Part shown: piece after piece, positions 19,901 through 41,000 of the stretch | How the letters are laid out: each line of letters opens with the position of its first letter | Position numbering within the stretch: position 1 is the stretch's first letter | IMG/VR virus record: IMGVR_UViG_3300044647_001247 | Span: 45,820-109,819 of that record | DNA: 64,000 bases | Source: a virus | Direction: 5' to 3' (one strand) | The notes under the pieces: model-generated | What the model saw: only the letters and a program-made list of their open reading frames with translations | Told to the model about the DNA's origin: nothing | The model's database searches: none | Made by a program: the position numbers and the translations under genes

Positions 19901-20134
19901 AGAAGTGCTGGCCCGTCTGATAATGATGTAGTAGCTAAGTATCTTCAAATACGTAGTTCTTTAACAGGTGTTCCTGATGATGAAAAGGATGATGTAACAA
20001 GAGCTATAATGGGTCTTGATAAATCAGCTAGAGGTAGAATGTCTCAGACAACATTTCCTTTTGATCAAATACGAAATAGAACTACAGTACAACAACCTGT
20101 TACAGGTAATTATTCACAAAATCCTAACGGATAA
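16997..20134 (+). CDS. putative ejected cargo protein with GH24 lysozyme domain
   Basis: FIKSQEGF...WD...SVGYGT...YNTG...GLVKRRNEEAGLF (GH24 lysozyme). Also EAEKGE...HEYGG...FVFSN, recalled from crAss cargo proteins. Confidence 0.75.
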   Translation: MKIRITKKGLPKAQWQNSQIPGGQAINPRKVAGKENLTSWNVFDNAPQQGVPTQFIDPQSVVNTERNVWNYSPYRNSQGESITGDEYYNQFWTPPNTPAKTAPNINKKSTYKKTNNFNDYFAAGAMTLNALDNRQTDKELEASWRNGLISPGIIDYSQNRGDYEMNTGMVDPYNTGAKNKGQFTNSFYTSQFQEGGIFTLNEVQQAILPNMLSVAYERNTPASTYVNPPNNSLKIDYTDAADFIKSQEGFIPKAKWDYAQYSVGYGTKAKNKNEVISKEEAENRLKLELAPVMEKIQSKLKVPINSGQLIALASINYNTGSLANKLIDRINKGESPDIIANTIKSMALTGVGSNKILPGLVKRRNEEAGLFLRGYENGGENTEIMKIRITNSPEKMEYGGQSNYALDLGRKNMYTDMPTSPYESVSKTIQEVPEEFATIEAEKGETILTDVDGDGIREHMNIEGKYHEYGGTNLAANPGDFVFSNHKPKMAIKDPTVLKLFDKKFKKGGYTPAEIAKQYDLNKYKAVLENKDADKYDKNTAELMSNNINKKLGMLSFVQEAIKGFPQGIPEVAKSTMGQNNQVAYGGYIPEMAYGGYLEQYQDKGQVTPSWLKPWLKSNTQKGRTSPTGKMTTYNPDVDNIYKELDYWQKRAGRNFKSADDMQSFIYSSIEKEDPSIIEDMWKKWGNTAKSKNTDLANFADNTIGARTADLLNTYRTKRGQPVSIPRNVKSNFNLPPLNTNSIDLPLTVPNPFTPPSDKVPDFNESKGNTPYGWTNPDKRNLANALINRSYIKKYPSVRSDVNPAMSDFRNMDWRGKAAELQGTYNSQLNTLGNFQSPTSLAANMSFMAGQQGENLVNRAIEPTEQQNVNIYNQVAGQNANIMNNALANAAQNKFLRSGERAVVNQRYNQEMIDFNNAYTQARNQGENNAAGIYNTNVTESPYYYIDPATQRMKFNSDNARAAFEAARRSAGPSDNDVVAKYLQIRSSLTGVPDDEKDDVTRAIMGLDKSARGRMSQTTFPFDQIRNRTTVQQPVTGNYSQNPNG

Positions 20135-23100: not shown

Positions 23101-23193
23101 ATGCCTTCTGTAAAAGCACGTATGAGTTATAACAAACAAGTTAGTGTTCAAGGTTTTGGAGTAGAAAGTATAATTAATCGTCTTCGTAAATAA
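20191..23193 (+). CDS. putative ejected cargo protein
   Basis: 1000 aa, Cys-free, helical N-terminal half, lies in the cargo block. Confidence 0.6.
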   Translation: MATFIPGDQPLRMDPVLYTPDYNFLRYVLQKKDAQYEQGLKSVSGTIGSLKKEMSDPTNVQRRDEYFKLAESQLKKISSADLSLQQNVNSANAIFDPIATDPGIVYDMYHTANNRKQLAAMESWASSDDMATRKKFNPEIYNWVKKDLDSLKNGNGDINSYKVQGRKAFAYIDAQDIINEAAKQQGFKTEKDDKGNPYLITTTEGPDFAPNYKVFAENVLGANSIYQQQLSILGQAANERVLDEARFNSAYADLSQTQILKKYFTDNYDKDRKENESYLSQLTDDFATQRKELLAYGESNRDKLNSDSKLANAYAQKVYSLESQEAQLENQRRAFNTRFGSDNTAKIALKEKYVTDAVNNPEGFFAQRYKLNDIMRFSNMRSASFSQTIKADQAYLGILNARDKSLNTINNIKDDQFDNKIDAIGLGIKTTETAYKLQGKDSKGERTKNSSGENKEADIEFAGNSQTQVTVQRHISNLNNSIALNTASAIQELTSPVGGLAILESMGVKPEAIGFIRQYYTRSMIDPKTKIRLDESNALSEAYRSLFAFAKNNNSADVVDKMRDQVKEGVTKDKVDIPSLLRMAVKNYTPKNENEIASISALIEYEKNLSQVNNLSGQLEVATNSVISNIIKDPKKTKEFSNVIVNDNGKNRVVDPSDIVKKLPSKGWMIKGIIGNNPTTLTEEDKKIISNGMFSGTLNVEVNGRGNSDSGEYFETTFEYKGESYRLRTDEPIIPATKELNSKLNKLNEMVPIPALSSEEGVIGAARFYLRNDLKENMRIIIAGDATTTSSNIIDGDTEKQVDPEMQKKVRAAIGDKKMIDSGSMYIIKGSPLNNGGQVVSITFPQGELTSDGKPKNEIAGKTFYFPINVDSKSPEIIKVFDQMDQLDEWMNVSNKNKPYVMDHFEGLGIKVEVIPSQPGSKVGTVKMYSKFNPDSSKYEDEMRVVDNITFDLNKITFSELKQEMFQKFIMPSVKARMSYNKQVSVQGFGVESIINRLRK

Positions 23194-23206: not shown

Positions 23207-26200
23207 ATGGAAAACTTCAAAATAAATACAAATTTATATATACCTTCTACACCAAATGTTGAGCAACAGCTGAAAGAAACTCAAGCTAGTGAAAACTACA
23301 TTCAATCTGTAATACCTAGTTCTTCTGATATTGCAGCTAGTATATCAATGCCTGGAGATAGTATTGTAGATCTTATTAATCAGATAGAAAAGTATAATGC
23401 TGAGAGTGAAGCTTTACTAGCTCAATCCAACTCTGAAATATCAACTATCGGGTCATACCAATTTGATCAACGAGCTGCCATAAATGATATTGCTAAGAAA
23501 CTAAATCCTAAAGCACCTACATTAAAATCATCTGCTTCAGGTGCTTATTTAGGTACAGTTGGTGAACTAGAACGTTATTCTAGTTCAGATAATTTTAAAA
23601 TCTTTGGTTTTAATAGTGCTTTAGGAGAAGAACAAGAATATAAATATGGTCGTGCTATGACCTGGGGTGATACATTAGGTAAAGCTTTTGCTGGTGGTGG
23701 AGCTATTGCTGCTGATACTTTTATAGAAGGATGGAAAGGCTGGGGACGTATGGCTGAAGCTTTATATACATGGGATTCTTCTAAACTTATGGGTTCCAAA
23801 GAAGAACGTTATGAAATTGCTAAACAGCAAGAAGCAATCTTTAATAAGTATGCTATATATAATACAGCTGAATCAGAAGATTCTCTTTTAAATAGACAGT
23901 TCTTTGGTAACATGTTACAACAAGCTGGTTTTACAATTGGTGCATTTGGTCAAATGATTGTAGAAAACTATTTAACTGCAGGTATAGGAAAAGCCATTAG
24001 TGCATCAGTTGGTATGTTTGCAAAAGCTAAAGGGCTTAGCACAGCTATGAACGTAGGTGAGCTCATCAACGACACCCGTAAAGCTCAACAGGTTATTTCA
24101 AACACACAAAGAGTAAACAACGCTCTTAAGCAGATACCTCGTGCCTTAGTACCATTATTTGGTACAATAGAAGATGCAGTCAAAGCCGGTAAGGCTGGAG
24201 CTGGTACACTTCAGTTGGGTATGATTGGTCTAGGTGGTATCAAAAGAGAGCTTAGTATATTTAACATGGCTCGTTCAGAAGCCATCTTTGAAGCTGCTTC
24301 CACTTATAAAGAGATGGAAGATAAACTACTAAAAGAGTTTATAAATACAAACGGAAGACAACCTACTAATACAGAACTGGAAAACATCCGTAAAACAGCT
24401 GACGACGCTTCGTCTGATAACTTTGCTTCCAACTTGGGCATCCTGACACTGATGAATAGGATACAGTTTGGTAACATGTTCAAAAACTTTAACACCTCTA
24501 AGAAGATCTTTTCTAAGAACGCTGCTGCTTTTGCAGATGATGTATTTGAGGTGAGCGGTAAGGTAGGAGGTAAAATAGTAACCAAGGTTTATGAGAAAGG
24601 CTTTATAGGAAGACTTGGATCAGTTGGAGATATTGCTAAAACTTTTGGCAAGAAGAAAGCTGCCTGGGAAGCCAGTAAGTCCATGGGTCTTGGTCTAATG
24701 AAGTTTGAAGGATCTGAAGGAGCCCAGGAACTTATACAGGAAGCGTCTAATAAAGGATTGAGTCAGTATCATTATGACCTATATCATGGTAAGAAAGGAT
24801 ACGGTAGTAAACTAGACAATGTACTGGAAAGCATTCAAAACCCTATCACAGATATTGATGGGGCCAAAACCTTTTTGATGGGTGCTCTTACAGGACGTTT
24901 CATTGCTCCTGTATCATATGCCGGTGGTAAAATATTTGGTGGTAAACAAGCTCAAGAAATAGCTGCTCAGAAAAGACAGGCTATTGATGTCATCAACAGT
25001 TTCTACAGTGATCCTACACAATACACTAAAGAGTGGATTGCTAACGTGAAGGTTCAGAACAAAGCTGCTGAAACAATGGAACAAGCTGTTGCCAACGGTG
25101 ACAAGTATACATTCTATAATGCTAAAGATTCTGCTTTTGCAAAAGCTATATCATCAGCTATTAAACTTAATATGTATGAATCTTTAAAAGACACAATGAA
25201 TGAGTTGGGTAAAAACTTAAGTGATACAGAGTTTAAAGAAGCTTTTAATATGGATGCTAGTGAAACTAGTCGTCAAGGAGTATCAGAGTTTATGAATAAT
25301 GTTACTCAACAAATGGATGATTATTTTACTTTATATACCAACTTAAAAGATAAATATGGAGACAGGATTGTTCCTGAGCTATATCGTTATAATAAACCAG
25401 AAGAATATGAGAATGTAAAAATTTCTAAGATTGCATTAGACAATGCTATAGAAATGCTTACTACTAATGTATATAAAGCAAGACAGTCTACTAAAAGAGC
25501 AGTGCAATTGCAACGTGAGATGGCTGCTAATATAAATATAGGAGCTTCTTCTATAGAAGTTTTAAACAAACTAGGAAGTGAACAATCTATTAATGATCAT
25601 GTAGATATCCTTCAAAAAGAAGTTTCTTTTTATGAGAGTGTTGATACATTATCACCTGAGCAAAGAAAAGAATTTAATAGAAAGAAGCAAGAACTTAAAT
25701 TAGCTGAGGGTTGGAAAAACGCGTTTGAAGATGTAATGACTGGTCAGGGAGAAAGTTATTTTGATCCTAAGACAATTCGTGAAATATATGCTGCTTATGA
25801 AGAGTTAGTTAACTTTTATAATAAGTCTGAAGAAAAAAATGTTGCAGTTTCTATAGAAGATATAGAAGACAACTTTAGTAAGTTCTTAGATTATATACAG
25901 CTTAATAAAGATAATAAGGCTTATATAGATGCTATGAATATTTTGGCTGATCCTTATAATATAAGCTTGATTATAGAAGCTACAAAAAGCTCGCTTAAGG
26001 AAATAGGTACACGTAATCAAAAAGAACACATACAAGAAGTGCAGGCCATTACAGAAGATAAGATAGAAGAACCTGCTGAACTAATAGAACTTGTAGAAGA
26101 AGCTAAGTATCCTGATTTACCATCTATAAACAAACCTGAAGAACCTGCTCCATCTGCTCCTGAGCAATCACTTAATAAAGAACAAAAGGCTGCTTTAGAA

Positions 26201-26518
26201 AAAGCTTATCAGGAAGCATATGCTAAGTATAAACAAGATGCAGAAGCTGCAGGTAATAGTATTGCTAACTACGGACAATGGAAAGATTTTAGTGTTGCTG
26301 CTAAAGATATACGTAAAAAATTTGATTTAGGTGGTGTTTCTGAAAAAAAAGAACCTGAAACTTACGTAGAGAATTTTGATGTAGCTACAGTTAACACAGA
26401 AAATATTTCCACAGATGTTGTAGATGAGATTTTGAGTTCTAGAGAATCAAAAAAAAGTGATAACTTTGATAGTAATACGGATGAATTTTTCACTAACCTT
26501 ACTGTTTGTAATATCTAA
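23207..26518 (+). CDS. putative ejected, membrane-channel-forming cargo protein
   Basis: Gly/Ala-rich amphipathic segments and SEGAQELIQE motif. The single Cys is in C-terminal VCNI. Confidence 0.6.
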   Translation: MENFKINTNLYIPSTPNVEQQLKETQASENYIQSVIPSSSDIAASISMPGDSIVDLINQIEKYNAESEALLAQSNSEISTIGSYQFDQRAAINDIAKKLNPKAPTLKSSASGAYLGTVGELERYSSSDNFKIFGFNSALGEEQEYKYGRAMTWGDTLGKAFAGGGAIAADTFIEGWKGWGRMAEALYTWDSSKLMGSKEERYEIAKQQEAIFNKYAIYNTAESEDSLLNRQFFGNMLQQAGFTIGAFGQMIVENYLTAGIGKAISASVGMFAKAKGLSTAMNVGELINDTRKAQQVISNTQRVNNALKQIPRALVPLFGTIEDAVKAGKAGAGTLQLGMIGLGGIKRELSIFNMARSEAIFEAASTYKEMEDKLLKEFINTNGRQPTNTELENIRKTADDASSDNFASNLGILTLMNRIQFGNMFKNFNTSKKIFSKNAAAFADDVFEVSGKVGGKIVTKVYEKGFIGRLGSVGDIAKTFGKKKAAWEASKSMGLGLMKFEGSEGAQELIQEASNKGLSQYHYDLYHGKKGYGSKLDNVLESIQNPITDIDGAKTFLMGALTGRFIAPVSYAGGKIFGGKQAQEIAAQKRQAIDVINSFYSDPTQYTKEWIANVKVQNKAAETMEQAVANGDKYTFYNAKDSAFAKAISSAIKLNMYESLKDTMNELGKNLSDTEFKEAFNMDASETSRQGVSEFMNNVTQQMDDYFTLYTNLKDKYGDRIVPELYRYNKPEEYENVKISKIALDNAIEMLTTNVYKARQSTKRAVQLQREMAANINIGASSIEVLNKLGSEQSINDHVDILQKEVSFYESVDTLSPEQRKEFNRKKQELKLAEGWKNAFEDVMTGQGESYFDPKTIREIYAAYEELVNFYNKSEEKNVAVSIEDIEDNFSKFLDYIQLNKDNKAYIDAMNILADPYNISLIIEATKSSLKEIGTRNQKEHIQEVQAITEDKIEEPAELIELVEEAKYPDLPSINKPEEPAPSAPEQSLNKEQKAALEKAYQEAYAKYKQDAEAAGNSIANYGQWKDFSVAAKDIRKKFDLGGVSEKKEPETYVENFDVATVNTENISTDVVDEILSSRESKKSDNFDSNTDEFFTNLTVCNI

Positions 26519-26526
26519 TATATTCT

Positions 26527-29500
26527 ATGAATAAGTGTAGTATAAGTATACAGATTTTTGCCAATTTTACTAAGCAACTGTTAGCTCAAGATGCTAAGTA
26601 TAAAAACTTTGCTGAAGTTGCAACGTTTATTATCAAGCGTCCTGGACAACCTGATAGTGTAAAGATGGTTGCTCTTAAAGGACTTGCTAAGATATATGAT
26701 CAGCTGGCTAAAAAAGACCAGACCTTTAGCTTTTCTGCAGATGACAGCAAAATCATTGATGTAGATTTGGAAAAAGATGATTTAGAAACACAGTTTAAAA
26801 ACATTGCTGCTAACTACCAAGTACGTCCTTCAGCTCCTCTTTCTATAGATACTATCAAGAATGATATAAAAAATCTTTCTTCTCTTCCAGTTTTGCAATT
26901 GCAGGACGCTGTTACTAAAATCGTAAAAGACATAGCTGCTCTTGCCAAAACTAATTTTCGTAAGAGTGCAGACGACATGGTTAAAATCATTGGTGAGCTT
27001 TATGATAGAGCTATTACTGAGCTAGATAAAAATACAGCAGTGAGTCCTATTATTCGGAACTCACTTACACAGCTTCTTAATACCGAAAAGAATATTGCTA
27101 CAGAAGCTGCCAGTGATTATATTCCTTTAAAGAATACAATATACGGGGATACTAAAATCATAGTCAAGAAAGACGGTGGAATATTTGAAGTTTTAAGAGA
27201 CACTACTGGAAAATATATTGACATTAATTCATCAGATAGTTCAGAAGTAATATTTGATAGATCTGTTGGAGATCAGTTATTTAATCTTAGAGTGGACAGT
27301 TCACCTTTTGTAGGTGGTAACGATGGCACTCAATATATATTTTCTCACAATGAGTTGAGAAATGGTATGACCTTACGTGATCGTACCGGGAAAGTTATAA
27401 CTAACCAATTGCTTAGTTTTGATAATCCACTTTCTGCTCTTGAAGTGGTAGCTTCCCGTACAGAAATACAACGTAACCAAGACCGCATTAGTAGAATTCG
27501 TTCAGAAATACCTACACGTACTCTTGAAACACAAGAGGTAGTCTCACAACAAAAAGCTTTGCTAGCAGGTAATCCTGTGCTTAGTGTATTTTCTCCTTTA
27601 GAAGGTGCACAAATACAGTTTCGTATTCCAGGGCAGCAAGGAGCTATGATATTATATGGTATAGATAACTATGCTATTATCTATCCTGATAATCGTACAG
27701 TGGCTGTAGACTTTTCTGAGACTCAGAAACAACTTATTTTAAAGCTTGCCCGCAAGAATACTACTAATGAAAATGGAATAAATGTAACAGAACCTATTAC
27801 AGAAGAAGACTTTTATAATCTGAAAGCCAGTTATGAAAAATTTAAAGATTTTAAGAAAGCTGTACAAGAAATCCTTGATCAAAATAAAAACCAATCTGAA
27901 ATTATTTTACCACAAGCTTTAGTTACTGCTTATATTAATCTTGCCCGTACTGGTGAAGCTATTGCTGTTGCACCCAGTGCAGATCAACAAGCTAGTCTAA
28001 CTACATTGTTAAACAAAGAAGGAGGTCCTGGACAGATTAGTTTTAATGTAGTAGAAGCTTTAGATGATAATTCTTATTCTGAACCACGTCGTGTTACTAA
28101 ACCTATTATAGTAGCTAAACAAGGTGGTGTTTGGACATTTATATCAGACCTTAAGGGTAATGAGATGGTTGCTGTTGATCGTGATGATAGAAAAGAATAT
28201 ATGTCTTTTTCTGATTATATGCAAAATGAACTTAAAATATCTCCAGATATTAACATACAAAAGTTTCCAAGTTCTTTTGCATGGCTTTATCAGAAACCTA
28301 ATGGTAAATTACAACCTATTGCTCTTAAGTATATACCAGTAGAAAATAGTGCAGATATTGCACGACTTGCTATGGGGTTTGGTCAGTTACTAAAAAAAAT
28401 GAGTGATCCTCAAACAGAAGGACCAAAAGAACTCAGAAACTTTAACTTGAACGTCTTTGGTTTTTCTCCCTATAATCCAACAGGTGCTACAAGTTTTGCA
28501 GGTGACTTTGACGTATTTAAAGATCCAAGTGGTGAACGCAGTGTGTCTATTCAGATTCGTCCTATGACTATGAACTGGAGCCAAGTACCTCGGGATGTAA
28601 GAAAGGCTTTAACTGTATATATAGATGTTCCTGTTATGACTGCTTTTTTAAAAGTGGTACGTATAGCTGCAGAAATACCTGCATTTAAATCACAGAAAAA
28701 TGACCTTAATACAGCGGCTGGTAAAAATGCTTTGGTAAAATTTATAGATGAAGATCCCCAGCTTCGTAAACAACTTATGAGTGCTTATGAAGATATTAAT
28801 ACACACCTCTATCGTAAGTTTCAGTCTATAGGTGAAAAACTTACTAAGACTTCTTATAATGGCGAGTTTGATATACCTAAGATTTACACACTGATGGAAA
28901 ATGAAAAAAGTGATCTTAGTGGAAGATGGAAGCTTAAAATAAAAGATCGTCAAACTGGTAATGATGTAACTAACTTTAACAACTATCGTAGCATGACTAC
29001 GGAAGAAGTGTTTACATTTGGTGGTATTCAGGCTGTGTTTGCAGGACCAAACGTTTCTGCTATACAGACAGTTAATAAACCAGCTCCAGTAACACAAAAT
29101 CCTGCTAACAACACTACAGCAGATAATGTTCCTGGTACTGCTGGAACTATAGAGATAGATCTTAATTTTGAAGATGGTGCTTTTGAACTTGCTATGGATA
29201 CTGAACTTTTCCAAGCATATCAAGCAGGGCAGTTTCAGCAAGAACTAGATTGGATTAAAGCAAATCTACCAAAAGAAATCAGCGTAGAAGACCTAGCTGA
29301 TATTATGGATAATCTTAAAGCTGAAGGTCGTGTACTTGGTTATTTTAGAGACCGAGTTATCTATCTCAATGAACAGCTTTCTGGTAGAGGATCAGGATAT
29401 CATGAAGCATTCCATGGTGTGTTTAGAAAACTAATGGATGCTTCTACTCGTGATCGTTACTTAAAACTTACCAAAGAAAAAATAGGAGCTGTTTCTAAAG

Positions 29501-32500
29501 AGCAGATTCAAGAATTCCGTCAAAGACGTTCTCTTTATCATTTATCTAATGCTCAGGTTATAGATCGTATAGCAGAAGAATATTTAGCTGATAAATTTAA
29601 AGCATATAAGTTAGAAGGTCGTGGTGCTCAGGAAGGTTGGCTAAATAAGCTAATGAACTTAATAGATAGTATCATTCGTTTTTTTAACAAAAATTATAAA
29701 GAAATAGATAACCTGTTTCAAAGAATTGATACAGGATTCTATAAGAATGCAAAGATTGTAGGTGAGTTTAAGGAAGGTGCGTTTGAAATGCTATCTACCC
29801 GTAGTACACTAGTAACAGGTCCTACAGGAAAAGCTATACAAAGAAAGAACTTTCTTAATAAAATTGACCAAGCACAGTTGATAAATAGACTAGCTGAACT
29901 AACTTCTTTTTCAGTAGGTAAAAACTTTGAAGAAAAGTTTGCAGGAGCTCGTAAAGAGCTAATAGCAGAAATGAACATAGATAACCTAATTGCTCAAAAT
30001 CCTTCTGAAGAATTAGCTATTCGTACACGTTATGAATCCATTCTTCAGGATAAACTTTATACTCTAGGTGTACCTGTATCTATGATTAATGAAACAGGTA
30101 ATGTTACTATGGATCAGAACTTAAATTTAATACAAAAGGATCCTGTACAGCTAGCAGCTTATAATAAGCAGCAAGCTGATACATTAAAGTCTTTAAAGCA
30201 ACAAGTTAGTCAAAAGATAAACAACATTTCTATATCAAACATATACTTTGATCCCGACGCTATGCTGAATGAAGAAGAGTTTGATGAAGATGATCTAGGT
30301 GATGAAACAAATTATGAAGATAGCTTTGTAAACATAAATACTTTGGACGGCTTGAGCCGTCAGTTTCGTTCATTTTTTGGTCTAATTTCTTATATTCATA
30401 CAGACGATCTGGGAGTACAAACCACCCGTATGGTAGATGGAGCTACAGTTTTTGATACCATGATGAAAATCTTAGCTGACACACCTGTAGAAAAGATGAT
30501 GTCTCGTATGGAAGAAACTCTAGAAAAAATGCTAGAGTCTGATAACATGGTAGCATATGATCGTCTTAATGCAGTGTGGGATAAGATGAAAAAATACTTT
30601 GGTCTTAATGAAAATAATCAACCTACACGTAATACAAATCTTTATAATCAGTTTATTGATGTATTTAATGTAGCAGATCTATCTACAGATGTATACTATG
30701 TAAACACTCGTAATGATTCTTCTAGTCTTAGAGTTATTGATGCCACTATACAAAATGATATTAATCAGTATTATGAAAAGTTAAGAAGAAAGTATGAGAA
30801 TGGTTTTATGAAAAAGTCTACCAAAGATCGTGAAGATATTCTTCGTGTATCCAAAGCTATTCTTAAAACTGAAGTGACTGTACCAACAGACCTTGGTAGT
30901 CAAAGTTATAATTCAATAAAAGCTAAAGCAAAAAAAGTACACAAGGCTCTTAATGATATAGGTATTATATTACCTCTGCATACCGTTATTTACTCTTTAA
31001 TTGCAATTGATGTAAAAGAAAATAAAGTAGAGTTAAAACCTAAAAGTAAATCTTTAAAGCAATACATATTAGATCAAGAACTTATTAATACAGGAGCTTA
31101 TCTTGATAAAGATTTTTTTGATAAAATTGTTAGATATGTAGATGAAAATACAAATATTTTTGATAAGTCTGTAGATAAAGATGTTGCTACAGAAGGAACT
31201 CTTGGTCTTACTGACTTAGAAAAGAATCAGCTTCGTTTAAAGAAAAGAGGACTGGGTTTAATTAATTCTGTACTAAAAAAGACAGGACGTTATGTTGTTA
31301 AGTATGATCTTGATACTGTAGTGTCTGTATTTCGTAATGCAGAAGGTAAAAATGTTTATCGTTATGTACGTAAAAGTCCACCATTATTAATAGCACAGTC
31401 ATTGAGAGAAAAAGGATGGCAAGATACTTATTCTGATTTTTCAACTGTTGCTAAGTTCTTACAAGACAACCCACTTACAGCTAATAAGCCTGAAAATTTG
31501 CTCTACTTACAAAACATTGAGCTTAGAAGTTTTGGTGGAGCTCGTCAAACACTTAAAGGTGTAGAACGAGATGGTGTTACAGCTAAGACTATTGATACAG
31601 CAGGTTACTATCTAAGCTATGTCCTGATGTCTATGAACCGTAAAACAACTATAAATAATAACGCTGCTATTACAACTTTTTCTAGGATGCTTACTCAAAA
31701 TGAAGCTTCTAATACTATATATATGATACCAAATCTATATAAAAGAATGGTAACAAATAATGGATATATAGTTGAAAATAAAGAAAATATAGTGGTTAAA
31801 GGTTTTGTAGACGTTATCAAACAAGAATACCAGCGTATACAAAGAGAATGGACTACACGTAAAGATCAGAATAAAGAAAAATTTAATAATTATAATGCTG
31901 TTTTAAATCCTGATGGATCTGTAAACACAGAAGATCCATCTTTGCGTGCGTACAACTTTAATATGCTTGCTGATTTTTTTGAGTTTAATAATCTTGCATC
32001 TAAAACATCTAATCCACTACGTGCTGATATCCGCAATCAACTTATACAAAGTGCAAAAGATGGAATAAAGTTTGATAAGCTTGATATTGGTTTACTGCAG
32101 CGTGAACTTCTTAATTATGCAGAAGAAAAGTTTACTGCTCATTTAAACATACTAAAGTCTTACAAACTAGTTGAAGAAAATGAACAGACTAGTGAACTTA
32201 TGAGCCGTCTTATTCCTGATAGTTACACCGTTGATGGTACAACTGTAAGTATTGAATCAGAGGATTCTAATCTAGAGTCTTATCTAAAAGATGTCTATTT
32301 TAACGTATTTATAAACAACTTGCAGGTGTCACAGTTTTTTGATGGTGATATAGCAATGGGTGTTAAAAACTTTGCTGACTACTTTAAGCGTCAGAAAATG
32401 AACGTTGCTGCTGGACCTTCTATGAAGAGTGGTAATCATACTGTAGCATATGTAGATGAAATTACTGTTCTTATTAATGATAACAATCTTGAAGAAGGGC

Positions 32501-35500
32501 AGTATGACGAGAATGATGAAATGCCTGAAGGATTTATAAATCGTTCACAAAAAGTCAAAAGTTTTGATGGTCAGTCTGTTACAACAATAGAACATCGTAT
32601 TGAACAATATCGTAAACAGGGAAGACTTGTTGATAATGCAGAAGAGCAAAAATCTGTAGAAGAGATTCTTAAAGCTAGCCGTTACAGTAAACTTACTGAA
32701 GAAGAAGTAGACTTCTTGAGAAGTAACAAGGTAGTGCTTGGACCAAAGAAAACAGTAACGGGTGCTTTAGTATACTATCATAAACAAGCAGAACACGTTT
32801 TGTTTCGTACAGATAGTTCTTATATGGTTGTACCAGATGGAATGACGCGTGCTCAGGTTGAAAAAAGACTAGCAGAATTATATAATCAAACTGACATTCT
32901 CCGGTCCAAGCTTCGTAATGCAGATACATATGATATCACAGCAGAGGGAGGTGTGCAATTTATAGAAGATCAGCTTCGTGATGTTTACTCTCAAATCCAT
33001 AGATATTGGGAACCATTACCAAATCGTGCTGCTCATCACTATATGCTTAATTCTATGGAATTTAATGATATTGACCAGCTTATGGATCTCACTTCTTCTA
33101 AAAAAGCTACATTACTTCCTACAAAAGTTAACAGTGGTGCTATTACTGATCTCAGTAAATCTAAACTTTTAGTACCAAATATTTATAAGTTTGATCAGGT
33201 AGAAACTTCTAAAGTTTCTACAGATATTAGTTCTACTACACAGCTTCAACATCTGATAGATACAGATATTAATCTTGATGATAAAGAAGTTGACTCTAAT
33301 TTAAAAGATGCTATTCTGCAATATCGTAAGTTAACTGGTAGACTATCTCAAGTAGGTCTTGACAGACTAAATAACATCATTAAAGATGAAAATGGTAATG
33401 TAGAAGTACGTGAGATTATCCGTAGTATGAGAGATGGTCTTGAAACTCAGGGAGCTGATAGTAACACTTTAAAGTTCTTTGAGATAAGAGATGATCAGCC
33501 TGTACACAACATTAATCTTCCTTTGTTGAAGAAGATGTTTACTTATTACTACTTTGCTTTTTATTCTAATAATGTATTTAGTAAACGTCAAAGTGGTAGA
33601 AAAGATTATATAGTTACTAGCTGGGGATATAAACTTATTGAAAATCGTACTACTGGTGAAGTTATTAAAAGTGATGAGATTGCAAAAAATCCACAAAAGT
33701 ATAATGACACTTCTAAATATAAGCTTCGCTACCCTGGTGTAAAGTATGATAAAGTTAACAACCGTTACATTGTAGAAGTTATGGTTCCTCGTCCGTATTT
33801 TAAGAACCAGGAAGAGATTGAACTTTTTGAACGTAAACTTAGTGAGTTTTTATCTACACGTATTCCAACAGAAGATAAACGTTCTATGATTGTAGCTAAA
33901 GTTGTAGATTTTATTGATGGAGCTTACCAAAATACTATTGTTATACCACAGCTTATTCACGTACTTTCAGGTTCTGACCTTGACATTGACTCTTTATATT
34001 CTCATACGTTTGCTACTTATGAAGACTTTAACGGTAAGCAAAAAGTATATGGTGAGGCAAACACTCCTAAAGAACAGTTTGTAGAATATTTACAAAGTAT
34101 GATGCAAGATGAAACACTAGCCTCACTTATAAAAGTAGAATTAGATAAAGTGTATAAAGAAAAAATCACTGATGTTCCTGAATCTTTACAAGATTTAGCA
34201 GAAGATTTAAATTTACCTTTTTACAATTACACTAAAGAACAGTGGATGGCTGCTTTAGATGAACTCAGAATACAACGTAACAATATATATGAGCAGGTGC
34301 AGTCTACAAAAGAAAAGCGTAAGCAGACTCAAGAGATTTATGAAAAAGTAAAAGCTGAAAATGAACAAATGGTTCAGCAAATTACTGATAGTCTCAAAGC
34401 TTTTTTAAAAGAGCAAGACATAAAAACTACTCCAGATAAATTTGCTGAATTACTTTGGGAACAGACAGCTATAATGAAATCTAATTTCCGTGAGCAGGGT
34501 GATCTTCGTGTTTCTTTAGAAAAAATGAATAGCCGTATTAAAGATAGTTATGAAAATATAGCTACAGCTAATAAAAGAATTACTAATTCATCTAATGAAT
34601 TACAACGTATTAGTAGATTGATGAAAGTTTTAGCCACTTTGAACATACTTGCTCGAAAAAATATGCCTATTACAGCAAAACAGTATGCTAAAGAAGTTTC
34701 TAAAAAAGGATCACTTGTTCCTGAAACATTGCAAAATGATCTACTTCAGGTCAAGATAGATATACTTAGTAATCCTTATACATTTAAAAAATTATATATA
34801 CAAGAACGTTCTGATATATCTAGGTTTGAAAATATAGCAGTGGCTATGAAAAAAAGTATTAAAGATGTTATTAATAAAAATAATATTTTTTCACCAGATG
34901 GTATCATTGGATCTCGTGATATGGTTAAAAGTTCTGGTGCAGGTATTGGTATAGCAGCTAACGTTAATAAGTTTGCAGCTTTTGCTTCTAAGAAAGGCTT
35001 GAAGCTAAGTAATCCTATATGGAATGTTAACGGTAAAAACTATTCAGACTTTACAGCTGATAGTGAAAACCGGCCGATATCAGACATTGGTAATGCATTA
35101 GGTATGCAGGCAGATGCTAAAAGTAATCCTATTCCTGCTGTACTTAATCTTAATGAAGTTAGTTTACCTATCACACTAGTTATGATTGCACAAAAGCTTC
35201 CTTTAGAGATGGCTATTACAATCAATTCTGTACCACTTATATATAAAGTGATACAACGTGTTATGGAAGAAAAACGTGAAATACGTACAATAGCAGATTT
35301 GTTTAACAAACGTAGTCTTACAAGCATTGCTCGTGATGAGATGAGTGAGGCCATTGAAAAACTTAAAGAAGATGGTTTGCAGGCAGAGCTTTTTGAAGTA
35401 GATGATGAACAAAACATTATCTATGATATGGCTGGTAATCCTAAATTTAAAACTGATTTGTTTTTAGATTATGACTTTAATTATACTCCCACAGATAGAT

Positions 35501-38031
35501 CTTCCGCTGAAGACTTTGGTTTTAAACTTAACAACAAACTGGGTATTCCATTGTCAGATGATTCTACACAAGTTTATTTGCTGCATAAATATATTCAGAC
35601 AAGTAATCTAAACAATGATGTATTTGCTTTAGGTTCTATCTTAAACTTGTATAAAAAACTTAAACCAAGTTGGAAGTCTGTAGACCGGACATTAAAGAAT
35701 TATGCTTATCTAACTGGTGTACTTACAGAGAAGAGTCAGTTTGCTAATATTGAGGAGATTCTAAAAAACTCTCCAGAGTTTAAACCTTTAATACAAGGTT
35801 TAAAAGAACTTTCTGAAAATGCTGAAGTTATTCTTATAGAGCGTCATCCTGTAATGAAAGCTATTGATGATACTATTAAAGGAGGTTTACAAGCATTTAA
35901 TTTAGATGAACAAGTAGAACAAAGAATCACGGATCAAATTACTAAATACTTTATTATTAACAAGTTTCGTCAGCAAACAGAAACAGAGCTTAATGAAGAA
36001 TTACTTAAACCTACTCCTAATCTTCTTGTTGTACAGTCACTTAAAACTGCTCTTGAAATGTTTAATGCTGATTTTTGGAAAGGAGAACCTACAAATGCAG
36101 ATGTTACTTCTATAGAGCAGGACTTTCAATATCTTAAAGATAATCATGAGGGTAATCCTTTTGTAGACTATTTAAAAGAGCGTACACGTCAAGGAATAAG
36201 TTTTATTGAAGCTCTTAGTAGAATGAAACTTGAAAAGGAGTATGCAGAAAATGTTAATGATGGATTTTTACTATTGCAGAATTCACCTGATACTCGTAGT
36301 AAACTTATAGCTCGTAAACTATTTCACTATACACTTGTAAAAGATGGACTAGGGTATGGTTCAAATACTTTTATCAATTATATAAACCCGCAGGATCCAC
36401 AAACATTTGAGAAAATATCCAAGTATTTGAATGAGTTTCAAACAACTTTGGTTGAGTTTAACAAGAAGAATCGTGTTCTTATACAAAAAGGTAAAGCAGA
36501 AAGTTATTACAAAAAGTTCAATGATTTGCTTAATGACTTCTTTGGTAAGAAAGCTGATTTGAATGTATACATGAGTTCTATCATTAACCGTATAGGACTT
36601 TACGCTGGCAACAATGACATTATGGTTAAGAGTCGTATGGCACTTATCAAAAGTAAGAAAAGCCGATTTGCAGGTATAGAGCCTGCGTTGATAATGGAAG
36701 AGATGAAATACTTACTTCCTGATACACATGCTCTCACTCCTAAAGATGTTTATACAGAGCTGGAAGAGAATCCAGAGAATATTGAGTTTTGGTTGCCTAC
36801 TTCTAAAGAAACTGGTATAGGTAAACTTGTAATAGATACCGCTAAAACCTATTCTAATATTTCTAATATTATTCTTTCTCAAATGAATGTTCGCCAGGGT
36901 GCACAATTTAATGGCGATGATGGTAAAACTCAGACTTATGTGTTTCCACTGTTTGTAAAGAATAACTTTGGTCAAATACTACGTTTAACAGAAGTGGATG
37001 GTGCACGCCTTAGTGAGAAAGTTATTAACAATCTTACTTCAAAACTTCAGGGAAAATCTTATAATGACAGTGTATCTGGTGTTCGTGCTACTTATATAGT
37101 GGCTGAACAAGAAGGTACTGATAGTATTCTTAATCTTGGATTTAGTGAGCAAGAAGCTCGTGAACTTTACAAGTTTGCACAGGAAGATAACGACAATCAA
37201 TTTTTGGATATAAGTATTACTGCTAAATTTGATCAAGTACTTCAAAAACTACGTAATGTTTATAAGGTAGAGCCCAAACGTCTTAATTTATTAGCTCGTA
37301 TTGTTAAGAGTGAAGTGATGAATAGTGCTGCCATTACATTTGAAAAGCAAAAGAATAATTTGTTTTATATTGACTACACAGTAGATACAAAAGATCGTGG
37401 TCCTGTACAACGTAAACTTTATCTTCGTCCAAGTGTTACTGATCCTTTAAGTATTACTATAGAAATGAGGGAACGTGAAATAGTAACTGGAATAGAAACT
37501 TTGGTACAGCTTGAAGATAATATGCGTGAGTTTCCTGCAGTAGAGATTGAATTTGTAAAACGTGGTAAGCAATTCCGTGGACCTAGGGTTACAAAGCCAG
37601 CTAATCCTATCACTAAAGAAATGGTAGCTGAAGTGGTAAAAAATTATCAAGTTCCACAAGATAGAAAGCTTAAAACAAAATTAACATTTACTATATTTGC
37701 AGATACTCAGTGGAATCTTCTAAAAGAAAATCTTAATCTAGATAAACTTGTTCAGATATTTAATGATGTACATACTATTTCAGTAAATCAACAAGCTCCT
37801 ATACAAGAATCTTCTAGTGCTTTTTCTTCATTTACTATTCCAGCTGGTTTTGTATTACGTCCTAATGCTCCTGATATAAAAGCTTATATTTCTCAAATGC
37901 GTAAAGTTAGTGATAAGAGTGAAACTGAGCTTATAGAAATGTATAAGAAGATTAATCTTATTGCTACTTCTACTAGAGATATAAATGATGTAAGAAAGGA
38001 TAAAGATTCTGGTGATTGTATTATTTTATAA
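26527..38031 (+). CDS. virion RNA polymerase (crAss-type, single-chain two-barrel) fused to a zincin-like domain
   Basis: RIPTEDKRSM...GSDLDIDSLY (DxDxD at 33976-33990), FDGQS and DYFKR motifs, and HEAFH (29401-29415) with downstream AEEYLAD. Confidence 0.9.
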   Translation: MNKCSISIQIFANFTKQLLAQDAKYKNFAEVATFIIKRPGQPDSVKMVALKGLAKIYDQLAKKDQTFSFSADDSKIIDVDLEKDDLETQFKNIAANYQVRPSAPLSIDTIKNDIKNLSSLPVLQLQDAVTKIVKDIAALAKTNFRKSADDMVKIIGELYDRAITELDKNTAVSPIIRNSLTQLLNTEKNIATEAASDYIPLKNTIYGDTKIIVKKDGGIFEVLRDTTGKYIDINSSDSSEVIFDRSVGDQLFNLRVDSSPFVGGNDGTQYIFSHNELRNGMTLRDRTGKVITNQLLSFDNPLSALEVVASRTEIQRNQDRISRIRSEIPTRTLETQEVVSQQKALLAGNPVLSVFSPLEGAQIQFRIPGQQGAMILYGIDNYAIIYPDNRTVAVDFSETQKQLILKLARKNTTNENGINVTEPITEEDFYNLKASYEKFKDFKKAVQEILDQNKNQSEIILPQALVTAYINLARTGEAIAVAPSADQQASLTTLLNKEGGPGQISFNVVEALDDNSYSEPRRVTKPIIVAKQGGVWTFISDLKGNEMVAVDRDDRKEYMSFSDYMQNELKISPDINIQKFPSSFAWLYQKPNGKLQPIALKYIPVENSADIARLAMGFGQLLKKMSDPQTEGPKELRNFNLNVFGFSPYNPTGATSFAGDFDVFKDPSGERSVSIQIRPMTMNWSQVPRDVRKALTVYIDVPVMTAFLKVVRIAAEIPAFKSQKNDLNTAAGKNALVKFIDEDPQLRKQLMSAYEDINTHLYRKFQSIGEKLTKTSYNGEFDIPKIYTLMENEKSDLSGRWKLKIKDRQTGNDVTNFNNYRSMTTEEVFTFGGIQAVFAGPNVSAIQTVNKPAPVTQNPANNTTADNVPGTAGTIEIDLNFEDGAFELAMDTELFQAYQAGQFQQELDWIKANLPKEISVEDLADIMDNLKAEGRVLGYFRDRVIYLNEQLSGRGSGYHEAFHGVFRKLMDASTRDRYLKLTKEKIGAVSKEQIQEFRQRRSLYHLSNAQVIDRIAEEYLADKFKAYKLEGRGAQEGWLNKLMNLIDSIIRFFNKNYKEIDNLFQRIDTGFYKNAKIVGEFKEGAFEMLSTRSTLVTGPTGKAIQRKNFLNKIDQAQLINRLAELTSFSVGKNFEEKFAGARKELIAEMNIDNLIAQNPSEELAIRTRYESILQDKLYTLGVPVSMINETGNVTMDQNLNLIQKDPVQLAAYNKQQADTLKSLKQQVSQKINNISISNIYFDPDAMLNEEEFDEDDLGDETNYEDSFVNINTLDGLSRQFRSFFGLISYIHTDDLGVQTTRMVDGATVFDTMMKILADTPVEKMMSRMEETLEKMLESDNMVAYDRLNAVWDKMKKYFGLNENNQPTRNTNLYNQFIDVFNVADLSTDVYYVNTRNDSSSLRVIDATIQNDINQYYEKLRRKYENGFMKKSTKDREDILRVSKAILKTEVTVPTDLGSQSYNSIKAKAKKVHKALNDIGIILPLHTVIYSLIAIDVKENKVELKPKSKSLKQYILDQELINTGAYLDKDFFDKIVRYVDENTNIFDKSVDKDVATEGTLGLTDLEKNQLRLKKRGLGLINSVLKKTGRYVVKYDLDTVVSVFRNAEGKNVYRYVRKSPPLLIAQSLREKGWQDTYSDFSTVAKFLQDNPLTANKPENLLYLQNIELRSFGGARQTLKGVERDGVTAKTIDTAGYYLSYVLMSMNRKTTINNNAAITTFSRMLTQNEASNTIYMIPNLYKRMVTNNGYIVENKENIVVKGFVDVIKQEYQRIQREWTTRKDQNKEKFNNYNAVLNPDGSVNTEDPSLRAYNFNMLADFFEFNNLASKTSNPLRADIRNQLIQSAKDGIKFDKLDIGLLQRELLNYAEEKFTAHLNILKSYKLVEENEQTSELMSRLIPDSYTVDGTTVSIESEDSNLESYLKDVYFNVFINNLQVSQFFDGDIAMGVKNFADYFKRQKMNVAAGPSMKSGNHTVAYVDEITVLINDNNLEEGQYDENDEMPEGFINRSQKVKSFDGQSVTTIEHRIEQYRKQGRLVDNAEEQKSVEEILKASRYSKLTEEEVDFLRSNKVVLGPKKTVTGALVYYHKQAEHVLFRTDSSYMVVPDGMTRAQVEKRLAELYNQTDILRSKLRNADTYDITAEGGVQFIEDQLRDVYSQIHRYWEPLPNRAAHHYMLNSMEFNDIDQLMDLTSSKKATLLPTKVNSGAITDLSKSKLLVPNIYKFDQVETSKVSTDISSTTQLQHLIDTDINLDDKEVDSNLKDAILQYRKLTGRLSQVGLDRLNNIIKDENGNVEVREIIRSMRDGLETQGADSNTLKFFEIRDDQPVHNINLPLLKKMFTYYYFAFYSNNVFSKRQSGRKDYIVTSWGYKLIENRTTGEVIKSDEIAKNPQKYNDTSKYKLRYPGVKYDKVNNRYIVEVMVPRPYFKNQEEIELFERKLSEFLSTRIPTEDKRSMIVAKVVDFIDGAYQNTIVIPQLIHVLSGSDLDIDSLYSHTFATYEDFNGKQKVYGEANTPKEQFVEYLQSMMQDETLASLIKVELDKVYKEKITDVPESLQDLAEDLNLPFYNYTKEQWMAALDELRIQRNNIYEQVQSTKEKRKQTQEIYEKVKAENEQMVQQITDSLKAFLKEQDIKTTPDKFAELLWEQTAIMKSNFREQGDLRVSLEKMNSRIKDSYENIATANKRITNSSNELQRISRLMKVLATLNILARKNMPITAKQYAKEVSKKGSLVPETLQNDLLQVKIDILSNPYTFKKLYIQERSDISRFENIAVAMKKSIKDVINKNNIFSPDGIIGSRDMVKSSGAGIGIAANVNKFAAFASKKGLKLSNPIWNVNGKNYSDFTADSENRPISDIGNALGMQADAKSNPIPAVLNLNEVSLPITLVMIAQKLPLEMAITINSVPLIYKVIQRVMEEKREIRTIADLFNKRSLTSIARDEMSEAIEKLKEDGLQAELFEVDDEQNIIYDMAGNPKFKTDLFLDYDFNYTPTDRSSAEDFGFKLNNKLGIPLSDDSTQVYLLHKYIQTSNLNNDVFALGSILNLYKKLKPSWKSVDRTLKNYAYLTGVLTEKSQFANIEEILKNSPEFKPLIQGLKELSENAEVILIERHPVMKAIDDTIKGGLQAFNLDEQVEQRITDQITKYFIINKFRQQTETELNEELLKPTPNLLVVQSLKTALEMFNADFWKGEPTNADVTSIEQDFQYLKDNHEGNPFVDYLKERTRQGISFIEALSRMKLEKEYAENVNDGFLLLQNSPDTRSKLIARKLFHYTLVKDGLGYGSNTFINYINPQDPQTFEKISKYLNEFQTTLVEFNKKNRVLIQKGKAESYYKKFNDLLNDFFGKKADLNVYMSSIINRIGLYAGNNDIMVKSRMALIKSKKSRFAGIEPALIMEEMKYLLPDTHALTPKDVYTELEENPENIEFWLPTSKETGIGKLVIDTAKTYSNISNIILSQMNVRQGAQFNGDDGKTQTYVFPLFVKNNFGQILRLTEVDGARLSEKVINNLTSKLQGKSYNDSVSGVRATYIVAEQEGTDSILNLGFSEQEARELYKFAQEDNDNQFLDISITAKFDQVLQKLRNVYKVEPKRLNLLARIVKSEVMNSAAITFEKQKNNLFYIDYTVDTKDRGPVQRKLYLRPSVTDPLSITIEMREREIVTGIETLVQLEDNMREFPAVEIEFVKRGKQFRGPRVTKPANPITKEMVAEVVKNYQVPQDRKLKTKLTFTIFADTQWNLLKENLNLDKLVQIFNDVHTISVNQQAPIQESSSAFSSFTIPAGFVLRPNAPDIKAYISQMRKVSDKSETELIEMYKKINLIATSTRDINDVRKDKDSGDCIIL

Positions 38032-38048
38032 ACCTACCAAATATTAAT

Positions 38049-41000
38049 ATGCCCTGTCAAGTATTTAGAAATTCCAAACGTGAAATTGTTAAAGTGGTTG
38101 CACCTAATGGACAACCTTCCAAGTTATATAAAGACATTCTTGCTCGTCCTGAAATTGAGGGTAATAAAGAAGCTGCTCTTGATGTATGGTTGTCTGCCTA
38201 TACAGACGACTTTAAAAAGAAGTATGGTGACTGGGAGAATACTACAACGTCTACTACTGTTAATCAGTCATCCATAGTGGTAGATCAAAACGGAGAACCT
38301 TTAGCAAAGTATGTACTTCCTAATGCAACTTATAATCTTTCTGAAATTGCTGAGCAATTTAATTATCAGCAATCTGAGCTTCAAAGAAACTTTATGTTTA
38401 CTTCAGGTTTAACTTTAATGAGTCGTGACAAGGCCCAGAGAATAGTAGACTGGGTCGCTAAGAATAATAAGTATAACTCTATTGAAGTGAATATTCGTGG
38501 TGTCAATGACGGTTCTAAAATTATGTATACTGTAAACATATCTGAAAAACCTTTAAAACAACTTTATGAGCTGCAGTCTCAACAGTTGATTGAGCTTCAA
38601 AAATTTCAGATAAATCAAGTAATTAATAGATTAGCTATTAAGTTTCCAAAGCTGCAGACTAAATGGATTACAGCTGAAGATCTTATGCAGCAAGATCATC
38701 CTGTAGATGTATCTACTATACGTGGTTTTGTACGTGACGGTATAATATATCTTGTAGAAGGTAGAGCTACTGAGTCTATTGCTATAGAAGAAATTTTACA
38801 TCCTTTTATTGAATCACTTTTTCAAGATAATCGTGCTTTATTTACAGGATTATTTAACAAAGGAAAAGAGCGTTACCCGGAGTTATGGAAAAAGATCCAA
38901 GGAGCATATCTTGAAAGTCGTAGTTTTATTGAGGTTGATCGTAAAAAAGAACTAGTTACTCGTGTACTTCAGCAAGTATTACAGGAAGATATAAGTAATC
39001 CTGAGAAATCTTTTCAGGAACTAAAATCTCTTTTACAAAGATTCTTTAATTGGCTTAGTGAATTAATGCAGGAGGTTTTTGATATCCGTACGGATGGCAA
39101 TATTATGATACAGGCTTACAACCTTCCTACTAAGATTAGTTACGAAGAGCTGTCTGATATCATTAACACTAAAAATGTACAGCTTTCTACAGCTGTTGCA
39201 GATGCCAACTCTTATAACACAGACGGTGAAATGGACAACCAGGAATTAAACAATTCCAAGGACCGTAAACTTGCCCGTGTTGAAGAGCAAATGGACATCG
39301 TGCGTAGTGTAATTACAGACCTGAAAAAGGCTAAAGGAACTGACGCTAAGATTGCCACACTTGAAAAAGTGTTGATCAACCTTAATAAGTATCGTCAGAT
39401 TATACAAAATGATGAATACACTGTATCAGTTACCAATCTTACTGGTGGTGGCCAGATAGATAACCAGGAGACTTATAATGACTTTAAAGAGTTTGGAACA
39501 TTTATTCACTTTGTGCTGGAGAATGTACAGAAGATGAGTGTTGAATCTAATAAAAAAGTGACTACTATTCTTACTCGTGAAATGTTTGACATGCTGGCTG
39601 ATAACTATCCTGGTGAATTTAATATTGTAAACCTGGACAGAGATCAGATGTATGATATGAGCCAGGAGATGATTAGCTATTTGCAATACTATATTACTAG
39701 TGGGTACACGCTTCTTCCTGAAATATCAGTAGTTGGTAAGGATCGTAACGACCGTAACGTAGTAGGACGTGTGGACATCATGGCCATAGCCCCTAGTGGT
39801 GCTATAGAAATTGTGGACCTGAAAACCAAGAAAGTGTACACTAATGCACAAATCGGTTTAATGTTTAATAAACCATATCCTGTTGCTACAACTGAGCAAA
39901 CAGATACTGCATTTTCTAATACCAGGAGATCTGTATATGACAGTTGGGACACTCAGCTTGGTATATATGAAAGACTATATGCACAAGAAGGAATTCCGGT
40001 AGGTCGTAAAAGTGTACTGGTTTTAGTATACCGTGGTGACATGGTAGACGTTACAGATATTAATACTCCTGGTCAATTTCAGTTTGAATACTCAGGATAT
40101 GAATTTTTAAACTACAGCTCAGATCAACGTCAGAATGGAACTGATCTTGAAAAGCTTAACTATGCAAACACTGATCGTAAAGTTAAACGTGTTATTCCTG
40201 TAGCAGGAGAAGTTTTAGAAGATACAAAGACTTCTAAAGAGCCTATTATCTTTAACCTTAAAGATGAAGATTACAAACGTCTTTTAGCTAACCTGGAATC
40301 TATTGCTGCAGAAGAAATTAAAAAGATTGAAAAGTCTTTATCTGAACTGGATGAAAACAATGAGAACGATAAAAAGCTCAGGGATTATTATAAAGCACGC
40401 CGTGAGTCTATTCGTAAAATACAAGATAGTTTTAAGAAAGAAACTTGGGAACCTGCGTATAAGCTCACTGCTATTATGCAGTTTATGAGTGACAACACTG
40501 CTGCTATGAAGCAGACAGCACAGGACATTGCTAACATTAAAGATCCTGTAGAAAAAGCCCGTAAGCTGGACGACCTGAAGAACAAGGCTGTAGCCTTTAA
40601 CTATTTTCTTTCAGACATCCGTGAGTTGTTGATCAATCTTAATGATGAGCGTAATGATAAAGCTATCAACCTTCTTGATAATATCCAATCTAATATTGAT
40701 TACACTATAGGTATATTTAATGAGCTTGGTTTTAATTATCTAGTTGATATACTTAAAGATTCTATGAGTCCTGAGACTTTGCAAAAACTTAATGCGGAAA
40801 GATTTGAGAGTATAGATCCACTAATTACTCATCTTAAAAAGAAATTAGAAAAGCTTAAAAACCAAAAAGATCAAGGAGGTACTGGTACCACTATATCTTA
40901 TTCTATTTGGCAGGGTCTATCTAATATCGCCCGCAGTATTGCAAAGGTGCCTATTGATACCAAAAATGAAATAGAGGCTTTAGAAGTACGTATTAAATCT

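Follow-up and report, generated by a model that had tools for sequence, protein, structure and literature searches.

A stretch of 64,000 nucleotides from a viral genome (positions 45,820 to 109,819 of IMG/VR virus record IMGVR_UViG_3300044647_001247; the whole stretch is termed the window) contains three consecutive genes that encode giant proteins of 1103, 3834 and 2182 amino acids (aa). The second of these is a virion RNA polymerase. The three proteins carry single cysteine (Cys) residues on the ends that face each other in gene order. Comparison with homologous proteins of other phages shows strong selection for one thiol on each side of every point at which this protein module is split, and for none elsewhere. 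The facing thiols probably form interchain disulfides in the phage particle, and the split pieces would then behave like the single polypeptide of lineages where the pieces are fused.

Cysteine residues in the cargo proteins of the window

Six consecutive open reading frames at positions 14047–44597 (+ strand) encode the cargo block, with a total of 10,145 aa. From the Cys content of the other open reading frames in the window (1.40%), approximately 142 Cys are expected in a block of this size; translation gives four. The sequence-only reading had counted four Cys, all of them terminal and only on facing ends, and this count is reproduced exactly. All four belong to the last three proteins, on the ends that face each other. 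The two free ends, i.e. the N-terminal end of the 1103-aa protein and the C-terminal end of the 2182-aa protein, are without Cys. If four Cys are placed at random, the probability that each is at most four residues from one of the 12 ends is ~5e-10, and the probability that they fall on the four facing ends is ~6e-12.

The first link of the proposed chain, the 1103-aa protein (23207–26518, + strand), has Cys1101 as its sole Cys (C-terminal sequence LTVCNI, codon 26507–26509). The middle link, the polymerase (26527–38031, + strand), has only Cys4 at its N-terminal end (MNKC, codon 26536–26538, + strand) and Cys3831, three residues from its C-terminal end (GDCIIL, codon 38017–38019, + strand). 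The last link, the 2182-aa protein (38049–44597, + strand), has Cys3 as its sole Cys (MPC, codon 38055–38057).

The first methionine after the start is residue 47 of the polymerase and residue 116 of the 2182-aa protein. The segments that precede these methionines are conserved in homologues, and because of this the ATG starts of both proteins hold. A start of the last protein downstream of Cys3, which the sequence-only reading had named as a possible objection, does not fit this conservation.

Conservation of the terminal cysteines

In a relative with 86% identity the four Cys are all present, and there are no further ones. Eight homologues of the polymerase, with 66%–82% identity, keep both Cys4 and the C-terminal Cys, and the residues that follow the latter vary (CIIL, CITEL, CIAEL and CVGEL in P0002–P0009). 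Among polymerase homologues at 24%–27% identity, six of seven have a Cys in the last two residues. Homologues of the 2182-aa protein, down to 22% identity, display a Cys at residue 3–6 in all 28 cases; it is the sole Cys in 24 of these, and a C-terminal Cys is present in none (0/28). Conservation in orthologues, as predicted by the sequence-only reading, thus extends down to 22%–27% identity, and the orthologues do not have many internal Cys (interior Cys 0.02%–0.06%).

The 1103-aa protein is a member of a large family, here named module-1 (580 matches). A sample of 136 representatives was compiled, 1100–6200 aa in length and mutually <50% identical. A Cys is present in the last 10 residues of 126 of these and at 11–25 residues from the end in five; the other five have none and may be truncated calls. 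An N-terminal Cys is absent from all 136, and in 97 there is no further Cys. In the alignment of the first link from 23 lineages, Cys1101 is an invariant column and the only one in the C-terminal 120 aa. Cys4 is likewise invariant in the head of the polymerase (23 lineages).

Pairing of cysteines at the junctions

Eighty IMG/VR loci were compared. A C-terminal Cys is present in all 41 non-duplicate complete module-1 proteins, and the next open reading frame, where visible, starts with MxC or MxxC (36/36). These loci also include 27 fused forms of >4200 aa, which are mostly Cys-free.

Twenty-five records were extended by 20 kilobases (kb) to the whole block, and 24 chains were traced automatically. 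In the first protein of a chain only the C-terminal end has a Cys, in middle proteins both ends do, and in the last protein only the N-terminal end does. There are chains of two links (e.g. 4545 then 1718 aa), three links in most records, and a single chain of four links (loci L069 plus L112 joined; 1697, 3849, 644 and 2023 aa). The 644-aa middle link of the latter (26485–28419 of the joined loci) has Cys at both ends (it begins MPC and ends KIKCL). Over the 24 chains Cys is found on both sides at 42 of 42 junctions, and at the free ends it is absent (N-terminal 0/24, C-terminal 0/24). Other open reading frames of the same loci have a terminal Cys at the N-terminal end in 4/131 and at the C-terminal end in 7/131 (Fisher p 5e-36 and 3e-33). 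Interior Cys make up 0.02% of the 178,887 residues in the traced chains. The number of junctions therefore equals the number of Cys pairs in chains of two, three or four proteins, and the expectation of the sequence-only reading that the two would track each other is borne out. Both TGT and TGC are used as codons for the junction Cys.

The 25th record (L098, behind L020) is an apparent exception. It has an extra link of 380 aa (beginning MKC, ending TCA) at 18800–19970 on the - strand, which separates a 4300-aa protein from the last protein; the latter has a GTG start that overlaps the preceding stop codon (GTGA) and reads MTCQLHR. Moved, added and lost junctions such as this are the informative cases.

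Identity of the proteins with terminal cysteines

The polymerase displays the catalytic DxDxD motif of two-barrel RNA polymerases as DLDID at residues 2484–2488 (33976–33990, + strand), within the sequence GSDLDIDSLY. This aligns with GSDFDVDKLY of crAss001 gp50 and GSDFDIDKMY of phi14:2 gp66, and the motif is also aligned with cr50_1 gp059 and p-crAssphage gp44. Residues 2438–2525 of the polymerase match crAss001 gp50, which is a homologue of phi14:2 gp66, and residues 904–1076 match the C-terminal part of crAss001 gp47 (residues 2100–2294).

The module-1 profile matches the N-terminal part of crAss001 gp47 (hhalign probability 97.3%, E 1.9e-11). By this homology the 1103-aa protein is an RNA polymerase-associated cargo piece. 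The sequence-only reading had proposed that three giant ejected proteins form a head-to-tail chain and had called the first of them a channel protein. Every comparative prediction made from the chain agrees with the data given here; the channel label is unsupported, as the protein is homologous to part of the polymerase-associated gp47.

The C-terminal region of the 2182-aa protein matches crAss001 gp49 and phi14:2 gp65. Residues 477–597 give a marginal Pfam match to a PD-(D/E)XK-like domain, and residues 1–115 form a conserved N-terminal module (MxC...APNGxxSKLY...FGDWE...DENGEPL). Searches of the PDB sequences with the polymerase, the 2182-aa protein and the module-1 profile gave no match, and the DNA of the junction regions gave none with GenBank phages. 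The presence of the cargo proteins in virions is taken from proteomics annotations of the cultured relatives phi14:2, phi4:1 and crAss001 only.

Other roles for the terminal Cys were considered. A split intein or protein trans-splicing was rejected: the Cys are 0–7 residues from the ends, and in none of the three proteins does Pfam show an intein or a Hint domain. A bacterial lipoprotein Cys was rejected as well, the Cys at residue 3–7 being right after the methionine with no hydrophobic leader. An N-terminal-nucleophile hydrolase does not fit either; the same MxC start heads at least 19 unrelated domains.

Cultured and reference phages

The same arrangement is found in cultured and reference phages. 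In crAss001 the chain is gp47 (Cys2339 of 2341), gp50 (Cys5 and Cys2404 of 2412) and gp49 (Cys5). In phi14:2 it is g067 (Cys1797, the last residue), g066 (Cys3 and Cys2179 of 2180) and g065 (Cys3). Chains of three are also formed by 61, 63 and 62 of DAC15, by gp058, gp055/056 and gp057 of the IAS virus, and by gp038, gp037 and gp035 of phi4:1. Two proteins face each other in p-crAssphage (BK010471.1; gp45 and gp44), crAss002 (gp32 and gp33), cr271_1 (gp47 and gp48), cr50_1 (gp059 of 4774 aa, and gp060), Flavobacterium phage Fpv1 (gp33 of 4401 aa with Cys4400 as its sole Cys, and gp34) and Lbo-JY46 (gp82, whose sole Cys is the last residue, and gp81).

The first link and its partner are on opposite strands in crAss001, DAC15 and the IAS virus, and in phi4:1 a small gene lies between two partner genes. 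A junction signal at the DNA level is excluded because partners can be on opposite strands or separated by a gene, and because TGT and TGC both occur.

Two annotations can be compared with the terminal-Cys rule. In crAss002 (NC_055828.1, locus L119, 17088–17190) the annotated start of gp33 is 32 codons upstream of an in-frame MSC, and this matches the MSC start of p-crAssphage gp44. The rule suggests that the true start of gp33 is the downstream ATG. In the IAS virus (L120 15812–24794) gp055, which starts with MSLYC, and gp056, which ends with LCxK, overlap in a region with ambiguous residues. They are apparently a single middle link, interrupted where the sequence is ambiguous.

Position of the cysteine pair and of the split

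The points at which the module is split can be compared between lineages. In crAss001, gp47 spans module-1 plus the equivalent of residues 904–1076 of the window polymerase. The position of junction 1 of the window (between the 1103-aa protein and the polymerase) is thus inside a single polypeptide, and gp47 has no Cys there, its sole Cys being Cys2339. The break between gp47 and gp50 of crAss001 maps to approximately residues 1000–1125 of the window polymerase, which is Cys-free in this region. The position of junction 1 is conserved in 25 lineages. In cr50_1 gp059 and Fpv1 gp33 the sequence is fused across both split points, and only the final C-terminal Cys pair is present. Fused orthologues, as the sequence-only reading had expected, have lost the Cys pair: none is found at the fusion point. 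By these alignments the module is split at different points in different lineages, and the Cys pair moves with the split. Longer fused forms of the 2182-aa protein, in the range of 3820–5000 aa, were not found, which is weak evidence.

Over all chains the heads of the downstream proteins fall into at least 19 clusters without detectable similarity to one another, and all start with M-x(1-4)-C. One N-terminal module (MxCPNxNxPEW..L) heads proteins at differing positions in the chain (e.g. L006 27916, L047 15048 and L083 26284), and phi14:2 g066 has a head of the same cluster as that of the 2182-aa protein of the window. Judged by such similarities, the Cys-bearing "socket" modules seem to have been shuffled.

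Co-fold model of junction 1

The last 71 residues of the first link were co-folded with the first 450 residues of the polymerase, in three runs and with three controls. The ipSAE is 0.61 (median of 0.67, 0.59 and 0.61) and that of the best control is 0.01. The mark is one reached by 58 of 80 solved complexes and by 2 of 110 mismatched pairs, and the runs have at least 43% of contacts in common. A co-fold of the facing ends, which the sequence-only reading had put forward as a check, thus passes its controls at this junction. Recall of a known complex by the model is unlikely, because the only solved analogue, from cyanopodophage A4 (see below), is not homologous.

Cys1101 is preceded by a short amphipathic helix. 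In the model this C-terminal helix (residues 1087–1099) and Cys1101 (26465–26509, + strand) form a "plug" that docks on the next protein, and Cys4 with the N-terminal helices of the polymerase (residues 4–64; 26536–26718, + strand) forms a "socket" that takes the tail. The tail helix is predicted to lie antiparallel on polymerase helices 4–22 and 38–64, with residue pairs 6 with 114/115, 10 with 111, 14 with 108 and 17 with 104. The modelled interface includes the residues around both Cys, i.e. polymerase residues 4–6 and tail segment 118–120. Proximity of Cys4 and Cys1101 would be an extrapolation from these neighbouring pairs.

Other genes of the block and its surroundings

The first three proteins of the cargo block, of 981 aa (14047–16992), 1045 aa (16997–20134) and 1000 aa (20191–23193), all on the + strand, have no Cys. 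The 1045-aa protein has a phage lysozyme domain at residues 245–367 (PF00959, E 8.7e-17). By the terminal-Cys rule these three proteins are not links of the chain, because they have no terminal Cys; their homologues in relatives lack one too. The gene order, with a 1532-aa structural protein (phrog_37948), the three Cys-free proteins and then the chain, fits the tail/muzzle–cargo–RNA polymerase order of Crassvirales. The upstream muzzle-like protein is closest to those of Leptolyngbya phage Lbo-JY46 (epsilon crAss-like) and Cellulophaga phages phi4:1 and phi17:2.

Cys-rich proteins are found in the structural block of the window, at 1597–2823 (20 Cys in 408 aa), 3397–4050 (8 in 217 aa) and 4062–4490 (7 in 142 aa). 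One of these has Cys near both ends. As a group they stand in sharp contrast to the Cys-free cargo, and they may serve as tail parts braced by disulfides, similar to those of crAss001.

The annotated genes of p-crAssphage include a thioredoxin and a truncated thioredoxin (gp39 and gp37; L116 30978–32245) at a distance of a few kb from those of the RNA polymerase, and phi4:1 gp026 (L126 10984–11412) is annotated as a cysteine dioxygenase near the cargo block.

Discussion

The three proteins are probably pieces of one giant virion-packaged RNA polymerase/effector module, which in other lineages is encoded as one or two longer polypeptides. At each split the upstream piece ends in a short helix and one Cys, and the downstream piece starts with M-x(1-4)-Cys at a helical domain. 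In the proposed mechanism, within the assembled particle the tail helix would dock on the downstream domain and the two thiols would form an interchain disulfide. The 1103 + 3834 + 2182 = 7119 residues would then make up a single head-to-tail chain without branches. As in other ejected phage proteins, interior Cys are purged, and therefore the sole disulfides able to form would be those that leave the chain linear. The link may also maintain a 1:1:1 ratio and the order of the pieces while they are ejected through the tail, and it may be reduced in the host cytoplasm and so free the subunits; both of these steps are less certain than the disulfide itself.

Several observations weigh against the disulfide-linked chain. 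A disulfide between these proteins has been observed in no crassvirus, and many of the hosts live in the gut, which is anoxic and makes spontaneous oxidation less certain. The junctions are inherited, hence the 42 junctions are not 42 independent events, and 10 of the 136 module-1 members have their last Cys 11–25 residues from the end or have none. The loss of Cys in fused forms is seen over the whole interval and not residue by residue; a profile of junction 1 (tail plus head) found no equivalent stretch in 68 fused proteins. In the co-fold, the partner chain has a pLDDT (predicted local distance difference test score) of only 48–52, and a direct contact of Cys4 with Cys1101 is not in the contact list. 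Unpaired terminal Cys, with no facing partner, are present in p-crAssphage gp47 (Cys856 of 857; L116 5588–8161), crAss002 gp30 (Cys550 of 557; L119 6393–8066) and Lbo-JY46 gp85 (Cys5 of 674; L125 36334–38358); such cargo proteins may be homodimers or further links. The structural atlas of crAss001 leaves the cargo unresolved and does not mention its Cys (PMC10172136).

The disulfide could merely brace a packed core complex in the capsid, in the manner of the "mortise and tenon" of A4, with no single thread and no role in ejection order or stoichiometry. The A4 authors describe their bond as a stabiliser of the pre-ejectosome ring (PNAS 2025, PMC12002296). Yet a static brace could sit anywhere on the interface, and the Cys are 0–7 residues from the ends in nearly all cases, whichever split is considered and although the head domains are of at least 19 unrelated types. 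The purge of interior Cys is what an unbranched, threadable chain requires, and fused and split forms interchange in evolution. That the disulfide acts only as a brace is rather unlikely. It is improbable that the facing Cys are partners without a disulfide, as ligands of a shared metal ion or through other thiol chemistry at a non-covalent plug-and-socket joint. The pairing statistics and the docking model show that the thiols belong together and do not show the type of bond, and the anoxic gut, as said, disfavours oxidation; but there is one thiol per side with no second conserved ligand (His, Cys or Asp) nearby, and the Cys is the sole invariant column of the tail while the heads vary. The only solved case of this signature, in A4, is a disulfide, and crAss001 particles have disulfides elsewhere.

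The unpaired Cys of the three phages named above would be expected if each terminal Cys acted alone, e.g. as a tether to portal, capsid or DNA, in homodimers or as a site of modification, with the facing layout being incidental. This is very improbable: it leaves unexplained the absence of N-terminal Cys in the first protein (0/136) and of C-terminal Cys in the last (0/28 and 0/24), the equal counts of N-side and C-side Cys in every chain, and the joint loss of both Cys on fusion. An artefact or neutral origin, by chance, wrong starts, tolerance of Cys at unconstrained ends or a nucleotide motif at the junction, has a practically negligible probability. TGT dominates in AT-rich genomes and the Cys codons of the window are near gene boundaries, but the probabilities are ~1e-10 in the window and 1e-33 across relatives, the Cys is invariant amid variable neighbours, and free ends never carry one. 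Partners on opposite strands or separated by a gene, and the use of TGC, do not fit a nucleotide motif, and the conserved sequence begins right at the Cys.

A head-to-tail chain joined by disulfides would bear on the packaging of megadalton amounts of protein by podoviruses and on how this protein is ordered and forced through a narrow tail; in the best structure of a crassvirus the cargo cannot be seen. A covalent link of this type would explain why splitting and fusion are tolerated at many places, why interior Cys are purged and terminal Cys fixed, and how delivery of polymerase subunits at 1:1:1 could be ensured. The terminal-Cys rule is also an aid to annotation: with it, start codons can be corrected and proteins of metagenomic phages assigned to the ejected set. 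A broader proposal, which is put forward tentatively, is that Crassvirales and their relatives inject RNA polymerase and effectors as a disulfide-stitched unbranched "train". Modular plug-and-socket joints would make fission and fusion selectively neutral, and reduction in the cytoplasm would uncouple, perhaps activate, the polymerase. If this is true, the rule would read the co-ejected proteins and their connectivity from the sequence of uncultured phages alone, and it would apply to the most abundant phages of the human gut.

Comparison with known systems

Among the closest systems are the cargo sets gp67–gp66–gp65 of phi14:2 and gp47–gp50–gp49 of crAss001, which have homologous proteins, the DxDxD motif and the same terminal-Cys chain; their split points differ from those of the window. 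The virion RNA polymerase cargo proteins of Crassvirales are virion-packaged and are fused into larger proteins in some lineages (10.1101/2020.03.07.982082; PMC10172136), and proteolytic cleavage of the fused forms has been proposed (Drobysheva et al., 10.1101/2020.03.07.982082). Virions of crAss001 have intersubunit disulfides in tail and portal-vertex proteins (PMC10172136). The Cys of this cargo are not mentioned in the phi14:2 preprint (10.1101/2020.03.07.982082), in PMC10172136 or in a Crassvirales review, and a literature search found no statement of a terminal-Cys rule for Crassvirales.

Cys is almost wholly suppressed in the ejection proteins of Schitoviridae (N4 gp50, DEV gp71–73), and their passage through the periplasm is given as the reason (PMC11445570). 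They are similar to the window proteins in that a giant virion RNA polymerase is ejected and Cys is nearly absent. In contrast to the window polymerase, the N4-type enzyme is a single chain of another polymerase family, with no terminal Cys; nothing is split, and a link is therefore not required. Assignment of the window polymerase to the N4-like type (single-subunit, T7-like, Cys-free, ~3500 aa) was rejected: it has the crass-type DxDxD motif, split pieces and terminal Cys.

Translocated two-chain proteins have an interchain disulfide by which the cargo chain stays attached to its carrier up to entry into the reducing cytosol. The likeness is an analogy of function, i.e. a link that is stable outside the cell and released by cytosolic reduction; the proteins and the delivery route are unrelated, and the link is not end to end.

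In cyanopodophage A4 the C-terminal helix of gp27 is in a cleft of gp26, and a Cys1715–Cys5 disulfide was seen by cryo-electron microscopy inside the capsid (PMC12002296). The genome of A4 (Anabaena phage A-4L) encodes gp27 with 1717 aa and Cys1715 as its sole Cys, and gp26 with 1114 aa and Cys5 as its sole Cys. Homology of the window proteins to gp27 and gp26 was not detected (blastp, no match at E 0.1; hhalign probability 0.1%). A4 differs from the window in that it has a single link and lacks a virion RNA polymerase; its genome is T7-like and 42 kb in size, and the A4 paper treats the bond as a local stabiliser, with no rule that tracks gene fission and fusion. In both phages, consecutive giant internal proteins have a single Cys near the upstream C-terminal end and at approximately residue 5 of the downstream protein, and the joint predicted by the co-fold of junction 1 would be of the same kind, a C-terminal helix on the N-terminal region of the partner.

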